Part shown: positions 9,287 to 11,100 of the stretch, one piece after another
Position numbering within the stretch: position 1 is the stretch's first letter
Layout of the letters: every line of letters begins with the position of its first letter
IMG/VR virus record: IMGVR_UViG_2802429249_000004
Location: 1 to 15,411 of that record
Length of the DNA stretch: 15,411 nucleotides
Source: a virus
Taxonomy: Duplodnaviria; Heunggongvirae; Uroviricota; Caudoviricetes
Direction: 5' to 3' (one strand)
The notes under the pieces: generated by a model
Databases searched by the model: none
Seen by the model: only the letters and a program-made list of their open reading frames with translations
Told to the model about the DNA's origin: nothing
Program-made: the position numbers and the translations under genes

Positions 9287-10429
9287 ATGAATAAAACTTT
9301 AATTGCAACATTAGTCGGTATAGTAATGTTAACCGGATGTGGGCCAGAAGAGTTAACTCCAGAACAGAAACAGGAAGTAGCGGCTCTTAAAGCTGAACTG
9401 TCGCAAACGGAAGGTGAAATATCAGCAGCTAAGGAAGTTGACCAGCAGTTTTCTGGTGGGTTGATAAAAAATCTGACAACAGCAAGACTGGAAATATTAG
9501 GAACTAATAAAGCGCTTTTGGAACAGCGTATTAATGCTATTGAATCAGGCGCCAAAATTGATGTTGTTGTATCTGGAGTAAAACCTGATCCTGAGCTTGC
9601 GGCTTCAATTAAAACTGAAATTGACAGCTTAGATGCAAAAATCAACGAAGCCAAAGCTGATGCTCGTCAGTATAGTGGTGGTCTGATAAAGGTACTAAAA
9701 TTATCTACTGTTGCCACTGAAGAGCAGACTATGGCAATGTTGCAGCAAAAGTACCTCACAGCCAAGTATGGCCTCGCTGAAGTTAAGCTGGCATCAGTAC
9801 AAGATAATGACGCAAAAAACAGTACTGAAACGGAAGTAACAGCCAAAAATTCCCAAGATCAACTTCCTTTACTCCCGCCAGCGGATGGTCCGTTTGGCTT
9901 AGAAGCCGGTCTTACACAGAAAAACATCGAAGATATGATCGGTGCTAAGCTCAAGCCACTACCAGACAGTGTGAATCTGTATACTTCTGATAAATTACCG
10001 AAGCAAAACGCAGATTTTGAAATGTATGGTTTGTTGATCTCCCCGAAAGCTGGTTTATGTCAAATACGGGCTTTAGGAAAAAATATTGATACTGATAGCT
10101 ATGGATTGGCTCTTAAATCCAAGTTTGAAGAATTGAGTAATTCTTTAAGTTCTCTGTATGGAAAGGCTGATACTACAGACTTTTTGCTGGCTGGTTCAAT
10201 TTGGAAAGATCCTCAGGACTGGATGAGGGGGCTAAACAAAAAAGAACGCTTCTTATCTGCCACATGGAAAGGAACAAAAGAAATACCATTAAAAAACAAT
10301 ATTGATACTATCTCTATTGAGGCCAGAGCGAACAATTCCACTCAGGGATATGTCTATCTGCAGTACTCATTTACAAATGACGAAATTTGTCAGGCAGAAA
10401 TTGAAGGGGCGAAAAAAAGTTCCCTTTAA
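9287..10429 (+). CDS. Putative lipoprotein with internal coiled-coil-like repeats (unknown function)
   Basis: 380 aa. Signal peptide ending in lipobox LTGC (MNKTLIATLVGIVMLTGCG). Internal repeat containing QQFSGGLIKNL and RQYSGGLIKVL. Moderately AT-rich. Followed by a strong intrinsic terminator. Confidence 0.75.
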   Translation: MNKTLIATLVGIVMLTGCGPEELTPEQKQEVAALKAELSQTEGEISAAKEVDQQFSGGLIKNLTTARLEILGTNKALLEQRINAIESGAKIDVVVSGVKPDPELAASIKTEIDSLDAKINEAKADARQYSGGLIKVLKLSTVATEEQTMAMLQQKYLTAKYGLAEVKLASVQDNDAKNSTETEVTAKNSQDQLPLLPPADGPFGLEAGLTQKNIEDMIGAKLKPLPDSVNLYTSDKLPKQNADFEMYGLLISPKAGLCQIRALGKNIDTDSYGLALKSKFEELSNSLSSLYGKADTTDFLLAGSIWKDPQDWMRGLNKKERFLSATWKGTKEIPLKNNIDTISIEARANNSTQGYVYLQYSFTNDEICQAEIEGAKKSSL

Positions 10430-10441
10430 ACAATCCGTGCA

Positions 10442-10468
10442 AAGCCCCTTAGTAAGGGGCTTTTATAT
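10442..10468 (+). terminator. Rho-independent terminator
   Basis: AAGCCCCTT-AGT-AAGGGGCTT perfect 9-bp stem followed by TTTATATAT, 13 nt after the lipoprotein stop. Confidence 0.8.
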
Positions 10469-10494
10469 ATTAATGTCCAACGGGGGGGGATTAG

Positions 10495-10818
10495 ATGAAA
10501 GATAATCTAGAAAAACTAATTGAAAATACTTTAAAAGATATTCTATTAGCTAATGCTGCTCTAACATTCATTTTTGCAATACCAATGGCTATTATCAGTA
10601 GGCATGGGATGGGCATCACAATCTGGTTTATAACTGTGCTCATTGCACCTGCTCTGTGTGCAGTAGGTGCATGGCTTGTATCTCGAACATTCGGCCATGC
10701 TGAGGAGTTTTTTCATCGTCGGTGGGCTAAGCGAATTTATGTTTTTTATACTCTTGCGGCTGCCGAGTTTTTGCTTGTGTACTCAATCGCGCAAATAATG
10801 AAAAATCTGATGAAATAA
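10495..10818 (+). CDS. Small inner-membrane protein (2-3 predicted TM helices)
   Basis: 107 aa. G-rich SD (GGGGGGGA) before ATG. Hydrophobic segments LLANAALTFIFAIPMAII, ITIWFITVLIAPALCAVGAWLV and VFYTLAAAEFLLVYSIA. Confidence 0.65.
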   Translation: MKDNLEKLIENTLKDILLANAALTFIFAIPMAIISRHGMGITIWFITVLIAPALCAVGAWLVSRTFGHAEEFFHRRWAKRIYVFYTLAAAEFLLVYSIAQIMKNLMK

Positions 10819-10860
10819 TTAACAAGTTATTATCATGGGGTTTGTGGCTGTTAACCTGCA

Positions 10861-11100
10861 GTGAGGCGACAATCGTGTATTTATAAAAACTTCCCCTTTT
10901 CACTCCCCGCTGTTTCTTCTGCTATTGCCTTTATGTTTGCATGCACCAACATCTGCCATACTTTTGCAGAAAAATCAGAGCATTCAGTGCCGAAGGTTGG
11001 TTTATTGATGCTTTTCGTTTCATTTATTGCAATTGTCTCTGGTATCATTTCAATTTGTGCAATAATTGCAATTATTGTCATTCAGAAGGGATCATCATGA
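10861..11100 (+). CDS. Possible small membrane peptide (C-terminal TM helix); start uncertain (GTG 10861 or internal ATGs)
   Basis: C-terminus LLMLFVSFIAIVSGIISICAIIAIIVIQKGSS is a strongly hydrophobic helix. Stop overlaps the start of the next gene (ATGA). No convincing SD for the longest form. Confidence 0.35.
   Translation: MRRQSCIYKNFPFSLPAVSSAIAFMFACTNICHTFAEKSEHSVPKVGLLMLFVSFIAIVSGIISICAIIAIIVIQKGSS

Follow-up and report, generated by a model that had tools for sequence, protein, structure and literature searches.

What is an AT-rich set of envelope protein genes doing in the middle of a record classified as a tailed phage, and what could it give to the cell that carries it? We address this question for positions 9287-11100, plus flanks, of a 15,411-nucleotide (nt) stretch of DNA from IMG/VR record IMGVR_UViG_2802429249_000004, referred to below as the window. 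A reading made from the letters alone (the sequence-only reading) had described the region as an envelope module of three genes, namely a repeat-containing lipoprotein, a membrane protein of 107 amino acids (aa; TM107 below) and a possible single-helix peptide of ~30-79 aa, and had proposed superinfection exclusion or receptor masking as its function. Taken together, our results make it very probable that the module is a ~1.8-kb cargo within a phage satellite of the phage-inducible chromosomal island (PICI) type, that the lipoprotein gene forms an autonomous unit, that TM107 is limited to certain lineages and that the third open reading frame (ORF) is no gene.

Cargo insertion in a phage satellite

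Gene content identifies the window as a phage satellite of the PICI type, located at a tRNA-Thr gene. Integrase, AlpA and primase genes lie in one orientation at a specific attachment (att) site, and strain E189 carries proA and a tRNA-Thr gene immediately before the element. No virion or lysis families were found among the window ORFs scanned against Pfam and PHROGs. A published E. coli PICI located between proA and yagU encodes int, AlpA, PerC and primase (PMC11773190), and because the layout of the island equals this published Gram-negative PICI layout, the lipoprotein module is placed inside a phage satellite. The region 9200-11300 is matched by 132 of 5426 complete E. coli genomes. The features of the module and of its two edges are as follows.

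8865-9152, PerC gene (Pfam)
9177..9190, left copy of a 14-nt direct repeat, TTTGTTGATGCTTT, at the left edge of the cargo
9247..9255, + strand, extended -10-like promoter element TGATAAGAT (TGnTA[A/G]GAT), which travels with the gene
9250..9263, + strand, palindrome TAAGATTAATCTGA, matching the RcsB box
9287..10429, + strand, lipoprotein gene, 380 aa, recognised by its ORF, lipobox and homologues
aa 1-18 of the lipoprotein, signal peptide and lipobox
9347..9781, + strand, N-domain (aa ~21-165), two ~70-aa helix-SGGL-helix hairpin repeats
aa ~166-199 of the lipoprotein, variable linker
9884..10426, + strand, C-domain (aa ~200-380), alpha/beta, starting with GPFGL
10441..10463, + strand, intrinsic terminator of the lipoprotein gene
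10477..10484, + strand, poly-G tract just 5' of the TM107 start codon, differing in length between close strains
10495..10818, + strand, TM107, 107-aa membrane protein, three hydrophobic segments, conserved
10861..11100, + strand, 79-aa ORF, judged non-coding (no coding signal, spans the junction)
11001..11014, right copy of the 14-nt direct repeat, TTTATTGATGCTTT, at the right edge of the cargo
11021..11077, a pair of ATTGCAAT-type palindromes separated by 39 nt, 5' of the 55-aa gene
11097..11264, + strand, 55-aa backbone gene, first gene 3' of the cargo and outside the module

The limits of the insertion were defined by comparison with two sister islands, those of strains DE17 (L009) and 258E (L010), in which PerC is followed by 110-200 nt and then by the 55-aa gene, with no lipoprotein gene and no TM107. 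Similarity between the window and these cargo-less islands stops after a decayed PerC terminator (~9180) and restarts at ~11017, and the direct repeats at the two edges are identical at 13 of 14 positions; together, these boundaries and repeats delimit an insert of ~1.8 kb. A sensitive search with positions 10430-11300 as query led to the same right edge, with some islands matching only from query position ~588 (window ~11017). At least 80% of this query was covered in 111 of the 166 matching genomes, and the partial matches listed comprised the backbone part only. Apart from the lipoprotein unit and TM107, the insert (roughly 9191-11000) contains only ~180 nt, in which no gene is supported. 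Its guanine-plus-cytosine (GC) content, 0.36-0.43 over 9200-11000 versus 0.45-0.61 in the flanking backbone, bears out the AT-rich composition noted from the sequence. The accessory status proposed for the module is likewise upheld, as it is present or absent among otherwise collinear islands in the manner of a moron, is low in GC and has a promoter-like element and a terminator of its own. As for the gene count, two of the three proposed genes stand, the third does not, and the two that stand do not form an obligate pair.

The rejected third gene is the 79-aa ORF, which does exist, together with its ATGA overlap with the gene at 11097. Among six close E. coli and E. ruysiae copies, however, this ORF has accumulated 14 substitutions in 240 nt, spread over the codon positions as 5/5/4, a density three times that of TM107, in which 4 of the 6 substitutions in 324 nt fall at third positions. 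In the L009 and L010 islands 1-nt indels break the frame, and L009 additionally has no start codon. Strain SCU-316 (L011) shows a repeat-mediated loss of exactly 39 nt between two ATTGCAATT repeat copies inside the ORF. The region is T-rich and is therefore hydrophobic in more than one frame. The gene calls of the collection contain none on the + strand at 10861-11100, and the ORF straddles the boundary between cargo and backbone, since the match to cargo-less islands resumes only at ~11017. By these coding signatures the 79-aa ORF is not a gene, and the single-helix peptide seen in the sequence-only reading must be given up. A minus-strand ORF of 66 aa (10881-11081), annotated by RefSeq in many genomes, also spans the junction, with substitutions at codon positions 5/4/4, and is probably a spurious call. 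The local annotation is corrected here because neither of these two ORFs behaves like a gene. Searches of the small ORFs against Pfam, PHROGs, NCBIfam and PADLOC returned nothing usable. In Klebsiella, TM107 is followed by a 266-aa gene, but positions 10819-11000 have no similarity to it and were rejected as its remnant.

The 3' third of the 79-aa ORF probably serves instead as a leader, promoter or operator region of the backbone operon that starts with the 55-aa gene, as suggested by the arrangement of its sequence. The ATTGCAAT-type palindromes are partly conserved in the cargo-less L009 and L010 islands, and the interval between them is exactly what SCU-316 has lost. The operon behind the palindromes is possibly related to packaging.

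The lipoprotein unit and TM107

The lipoprotein begins with MNKTLIATLVGIVMLTGC, a signal peptide ending in an LTGC lipobox, and residues G17-C18-G19-P20 are invariant in 22 homologues with identities down to 61%. The lipobox lipoprotein recognised in the sequence-only reading is accordingly a real 380-aa protein. Its internal duplication is also genuine: the motifs QQFSGGLIK (aa 53-61) and RQYSGGLIK (aa 127-135) belong to two units that align with 33% identity over 51 aa (E 2e-7), and the AlphaFold model shows each unit as a helix-turn-helix hairpin with SGGL at the turn (predicted local distance difference test, pLDDT, 78-96). The repeats start 3-6 residues past the lipobox Cys and are followed by a linker of ~35 residues, variable among homologues and disordered in the model, and then by the C-domain, modelled at pLDDT 97. 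In this arrangement the hairpins make up a base close to the membrane, the linker a flexible tether and the C-domain a compact head of a binding type. The mature protein is acidic, with an isoelectric point of 4.9.

An exhaustive profile-free search, which yielded 2452 clusters at 50% identity, demonstrated that the two halves of the protein act as separate modules. Residues ~1-170 are also joined to other C-termini, one of which is a type VI secretion system (T6SS) VasI domain, and in other taxa the relatives of the N-domain nearly always stand directly after the lipobox Cys (3-6 residues). Residues ~195-380 also occur alone, as proteins of ~200 aa whose signal peptide is cleaved just before GPFGL. 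Within the C-domain, the pair C258/C368 co-varies, with both residues present in 38 of 50 diverse C-domains and neither in 10 of 50; this is the pattern of a disulfide, and a periplasmic location is therefore expected. The lipobox, the Cys pair and the three-segment membrane partner all support the envelope location that had been assumed, and the lipoprotein is predicted to be exported, lipid-anchored and facing the periplasm.

The C-domain model appears to have a Mog1/PsbP/DcrB-like alpha/beta sandwich fold with no close solved relative. Its fold neighbours are weak, comprising PA1624 (6.1), the START domain of ACOT11 (6.0), the double-wing domain of YdcD (5.9), DUF4309 YjgB (5.8), DcrB (5.7), PsbP (5.7), TsiN (5.3) and Mog1 (4.9). 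The top fold match in a viral structure library was a 182-aa 'Lipoprotein' of Erwinia phage Midgardsormr38 (E 6.5e-7, TM 0.62), with further 'Lipoprotein' entries ranking fifth (E 1.9e-3) and twelfth (E 0.07). A Foldseek search of the full-length model against PDB returned nothing at E<=0.001, and single-sequence and profile searches of PDB sequences returned only a designed coiled coil and antibody chains.

Family searches placed the lipoprotein outside every curated protein family or defence-system model searched. Its sequence matched no Pfam family at E<=0.1, no PADLOC defence model and, in PHROGs, just two unannotated families at E>0.03. NCBIfam gave only weak matches far under the curated cut-offs (LpoB, SA0632 and Lpp), those to LpoB and SA0632 covering the signal-peptide region only. 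Kinship with Spy/CpxP, suggested by an LTPEQK motif, was rejected: an hhalign comparison with an E. coli Spy sequence aligned only 11 residues at a probability of 2%. No literature was found under the RefSeq protein accessions.

The gene is framed by control elements that are its own. Across different genomic contexts, ~45 nt 5' of the ATG move with it, and this interval includes a putative promoter, the extended -10-like element, which lies 39-42 nt before the ATG in 16 of 17 distinct box-bearing upstream sequences from varied contexts. A palindrome, TA(G/A)GATTAATC(C/T)GA, overlaps the element. In the window it reads TAAGATTAATCTGA and agrees perfectly with the RcsB box TN(G/A)GAN4TC(T/C)NA, a consensus defined in Salmonella (PMC7913699). 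This pattern, with a background rate of 0.06 per kb per strand, has 3 matches in the window versus 0.69 expected, one of them at 9250-9263. In the 17 distinct upstream sequences the box stands 36-39 nt before the ATG and changes only at N, R and Y positions, while the bases around it, including the next 20 nt, vary freely. More distant copies of the gene, including three prophage copies, carry no such box. The palindrome is thus a candidate site for binding by RcsB, and as it overlaps the -10 element, repression would be as likely as activation. At the other end of the gene, the strong terminator of the sequence-only reading proved to be a 10-bp stem with a T-run (dG -14.5 kcal/mol, z -2.9). 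Yokenella, Klebsiella, Enterobacter and Xenorhabdus have a terminator in the corresponding position behind the gene, and in Pantoea one lies slightly more 3'; the hairpin sequence differs in some lineages. With its own terminator, promoter-like element and a composition unlike that of the backbone, the lipoprotein unit has the sequence features of a moron.

TM107 starts 65 nt past the lipoprotein gene, beyond the terminator. It is a conserved gene for a polytopic membrane protein, as had been proposed, with three hydrophobic segments and a ratio of nonsynonymous to synonymous substitution rates (dN/dS) of 0.16. Its relatives form 17 clusters of 67-99% identity, mostly 107 aa long, in which the N-terminal motif LxxKLxENTLKDILL is invariant. 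TM107 was found only right behind the 380-aa lipoprotein gene (five loci shown, plus Klebsiella), the Yokenella copy is a pseudogene and most lipoprotein loci have no TM107. The two genes are therefore not an obligate pair, and TM107 is a lineage-restricted companion. Changes in the length of the poly-G tract could alter its translation through the spacing to the start codon. Searches of TM107 against Pfam, PHROGs, NCBIfam and PADLOC gave nothing usable, and the 107-aa proteins encoded in a Pantoea chromosomal islet proved unrelated to it.

A word-indexed search recovered 320 full-length relatives of the lipoprotein, and all of the 120 matches listed belong to Enterobacterales. In Enterobacter the gene was found on a different satellite backbone, in which int, AlpA, AntA/Bro, ASH and a DUF927 primase are followed by the lipoprotein gene. 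PerC- or primase-bearing islands with the gene occur in Pantoea septica, Tatumella, Lonsdalea and Klebsiella, and degraded islands (thrW remnants) beside proA carry it in Klebsiella, Pseudenterobacter, Kosakonia and Yokenella. The prophage copies are located in the tail modules of lambda-like prophages. A lambda-like prophage of Xenorhabdus has the gene between the tape-measure gene and gpM, a prophage array of Candidatus Pantoea gossypiicola has the order Fic/Doc, Bro, Rha, lipoprotein, tail-chaperone, tape-measure and gpM, and a Proteus mirabilis prophage has a disrupted copy 5' of the tape-measure gene. The gene is rare on plasmids. The neighbours of stand-alone C-domains (transposases, a PIN gene and housekeeping genes) are uninformative.

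Comparison with five lineages gave pairwise dN/dS values of 0.05-0.11 for the lipoprotein, with synonymous sites near or at saturation. By part, the values were 0.01-0.07 for the N-domain, 0.04-0.12 for the C-domain and 0.14-0.20 for the linker. On these substitution patterns the lipoprotein gene and TM107 are both functional genes, and neither carries an arms-race signature.

The island around the cargo

The remaining backbone features of the window, all but the last assigned through Pfam, are as follows.

1-1215, tyrosine integrase
2208-2453, AlpA
2532-3332, AntA
5862-6152, DUF4222
6149-7954, D5_N/DUF5906/Pox_D5 primase-helicase
8326-8868, ProQ/FinO
11615-12160, 181-aa protein whose N-terminus resembles excisionase and small-terminase helix-turn-helix (HTH) domains

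The small-terminase (TerS)-like HTH of the 181-aa protein corresponds to PHROG 57 (E 6e-7) and is confined to the N-terminus; no PDB relative of this protein was found. No Rfam family reached the gathering threshold in the window, and 9100-11400 had no match even at E<=1.

An AT-rich hotspot at the 3' end (13425-15411, GC ~0.34) is separate from the slot between PerC and the 55-aa gene. It encodes a DUF262/GmrSD_N protein, which matches the PADLOC models NsnA (E 7e-65) and PD-T4-2_A (E 3.5e-33), and then, 1 nt after the GmrSD_N gene, a RiboL-PSP HEPN protein that continues beyond the end of the window; from these matches, the pair looks like a two-gene defence system. In other islands the equivalent 3' slot is occupied by DUF4747, SIR2 or SEFIR/TIR genes or by a methyltransferase together with DUF262 and HEPN genes. 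Right behind the integrase lies a 302-aa ORF (1246-2154, GC ~0.30) with no Pfam or PADLOC match, and the same slot in Enterobacter satellites (L002-L005) holds ORFs of 290-298 aa with no Pfam match. A 512-aa ORF (3325-4863) likewise has no Pfam match, and the RefSeq annotation of a relative shows small opposite-strand genes and an 'Icd-like' gene over the same interval, so that the gene models conflict.

At ~11288 (within 11261-11532) the window has one G fewer than four close relatives, which splits the 90-aa gene behind the 55-aa gene into ORFs of 41 and 66 aa; either a pseudogene or a sequencing error in the window copy would account for the break. One Enterobacter genome (L005) contains two tandem satellite backbones (int, AlpA, Bro, ASH, primase) at 1653-13845 and 14352-21140, of which the first holds the lipoprotein gene. 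Satellite-like islands of Klebsiella (L035, 10789-13584) and Tatumella (L023, ~11812) encode a tape-measure-like protein of ~930 aa (Pfam TMP_3) just 3' of the lipoprotein gene and a homologue of the 55-aa gene, which is unexpected in an island without other tail genes.

Possible functions of the lipoprotein

Comparison with known systems describes the lipoprotein as an envelope lipoprotein moron of mobile elements that differs in size and architecture from the phage exclusion and conversion lipoproteins. The closest precedent in architecture is Ltp of Streptococcus thermophilus phage TP-J34, in which a lipid anchor and a spacer are followed by a tandem helical repeat domain, with the tape-measure protein as target (PMC3952083). 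Both proteins are encoded by mobile elements and combine a lipid anchor, a spacer and helical repeats; Ltp acts outside the cytoplasmic membrane, and the family of the window lipoprotein adjoins tape-measure genes in three prophages. In the window protein, however, the repeats precede the linker, a 180-aa alpha/beta head is added and the setting is the Gram-negative periplasm rather than the Gram-positive surface; having no Pfam match at E<=0.1, it has none to the Ltp family. Cor and Llp are proteins of ~60-80 aa with a single domain. Cor (phi80, N15 and HK022) and Llp (T5) are receptor-masking outer-membrane lipoproteins that come from small phage accessory genes, are expressed from a resident element and are encoded near tail genes. 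The window protein, a predicted envelope lipoprotein from an accessory gene, is similar in kind but has 380 aa and two domains and matched no annotated exclusion family in PHROGs or Pfam. Cor is cited in PMC10883804 as inactivating FhuA. HK97 gp15, an autonomous moron in the tail region of a siphophage, causes a tape-measure-dependent block of DNA entry (PMC10883804); it differs in being a small predicted inner-membrane protein, not a lipoprotein, and has no sequence relation to the lipoprotein or to TM107, which is the sole inner-membrane component of the window module. DcrB, also an Enterobacterales lipoprotein, shares the general alpha/beta sandwich of the C-domain, whereas the window family is set apart from DcrB, Mog1 and PsbP by its helical N-domain, by its Cys pair and by the GPFGL with which the C-domain starts. 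With the T6SS/Rhs immunity proteins RhsI1, TsiN, Tsi3 and YdcD, the likeness is at the level of fold only, and no toxin gene is adjacent in any context examined. As cargo, the module resembles that of Gram-negative PICIs in that its slot in the int-AlpA-primase-PerC island at tRNA-Thr is variable and separate from a defence hotspot; it differs in that the lipoprotein matches no PADLOC defence model.

We tentatively favour, from these analogies, a role in which the lipoprotein protects the carrier cell through an early block of phage infection, at injection or adsorption, although we would not call this reading probable. It is ranked first because carriers gain from excluding competitor phages, because three prophages keep the gene in moron clusters beside the tape-measure gene and because the architecture of anchor, spacer and repeats has a precedent in Ltp. 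The lipoprotein would be made in the uninduced island-carrying cell, and its tethered head would bind a conserved component of the envelope or of the phage tail from the membrane, blocking an early infection step of competing, non-helper phages. By analogy with Ltp and HK97 gp15, the step affected would most likely be the crossing of the periplasm by the tail tip or tape-measure conduit; alternatively, the lipoprotein could mask an outer-membrane receptor in the manner of Cor and Llp. TM107 could assist in the inner membrane, extending the block or making it more stable, and the RcsB-box palindrome over the promoter suggests that expression may be tied to envelope stress. A more specific version holds that the family is a new and widespread Gram-negative exclusion class, a periplasmic 'gatekeeper' that is wired to Rcs and binds the tail-tip/tape-measure conduit after adsorption. 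It would stop competitor siphophages as a functional analogue of the Gram-positive Ltp, its RcsB box moving with the gene. We consider this version a long shot.

Several observations weigh against an early block of infection. The homology to known exclusion lipoproteins that the sequence-only reading had offered as a check did not appear in Pfam, PHROGs or PADLOC, and the protein belongs to none of the Cor, Llp, Ltp, Bor or TraT family models in these libraries or NCBIfam. Among 50,697 deposited phage genomes there was no tblastn match at E<=1e-3 and no DNA match. Both domains are widespread outside mobile elements and outside Enterobacterales (2452 clusters), and a chromosomal islet of Pantoea, near folD and free of recognisable phage genes, contains the full-length gene. 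Because unrelated morons (Fic/Doc, Bro, Rha) share the tail-module sites, a place beside the tape-measure gene may reflect no more than a site that tolerates insertions. Position +2 of the lipoprotein is not Asp and Gly-Pro is invariant at +2/+3; Gly at +2 would not tell inner- from outer-membrane sorting. Purifying selection is strong and leaves no hypervariable patch, unlike the usual arms-race interface, and a constraint of this kind fits the binding of a conserved host receptor.

Some of these observations can be read in favour of a host envelope fitness or stress factor of the lysogenic-conversion type, like Bor, TraT or Lom, which we regard as possible and rather unlikely. The lipoprotein would then be a periplasmic binding or structural protein for envelope robustness, serum or bile resistance or colonisation, maybe within the Rcs response, and mobile elements would keep it because the host benefits. 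The strong purifying selection across genera and the occurrence of both domains in non-mobile contexts and distant phyla suit such a role, as does the perfect, positionally conserved RcsB box over the promoter, but its overlap with the putative -10 element would speak for repression rather than for induction by stress. LpoB is an envelope regulator with a membrane anchor, a long flexible linker and a globular head, and the anchor, linker and head of the window protein resemble this type; to Bor and TraT there is no homology. The distribution argues the other way, with the full-length gene in Enterobacterales overwhelmingly on satellites, prophages and att-site remnants and present in just 132 of 5426 complete E. 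coli genomes.

An orphan periplasmic immunity or inhibitor protein, its C-domain neutralising a periplasm-acting toxin or lytic enzyme such as a T6SS/Rhs effector, a bacteriocin or a peptidoglycan hydrolase, whether tail-associated or exogenous, is in our estimate unlikely. The C-domain has immunity proteins among its fold neighbours, but the same list includes DcrB, PsbP, Mog1 and START domains. One relative of the N-domain is joined to the T6SS VasI domain, on an Enterobacter replicon 3 kb separate the gene from an Abi gene and a colicin-like pair of bacteriocin and immunity genes, and toxin-like genes (DUF4225 and SymE) lie in the Pantoea islet; nevertheless, in none of ~20 contexts examined does a cognate toxin gene stand beside the lipoprotein gene, and the satellite, prophage, thrW and stand-alone C-domain contexts examined contain no effector-like neighbour. 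A part in the life cycle of the satellite itself, in lysis timing, release or packaging, with the small hydrophobic ORF as a holin-like or toxic product, is highly improbable. The module does lie between PerC and the operon with the TerS-like HTH protein (PHROG 57, E 6e-7), and the 79-aa ORF does end in an ATGA overlap with the next gene, yet close sister islands without the module keep the flanking genes, the lipoprotein is found in prophages and in plain chromosome as well, and the small ORF fails every coding test.

If the lipoprotein does block phage entry, as in the early-block reading ranked first here, it would add an envelope-level defence to a PICI repertoire that is so far mostly cytoplasmic, and it would give a function to two domain families without coverage in curated libraries. 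The portable promoter with its RcsB box would exemplify a mobile gene that comes already connected to a stress regulon of the host. The candidates for testing are few, comprising the gene itself, an optional partner and a single cis element.

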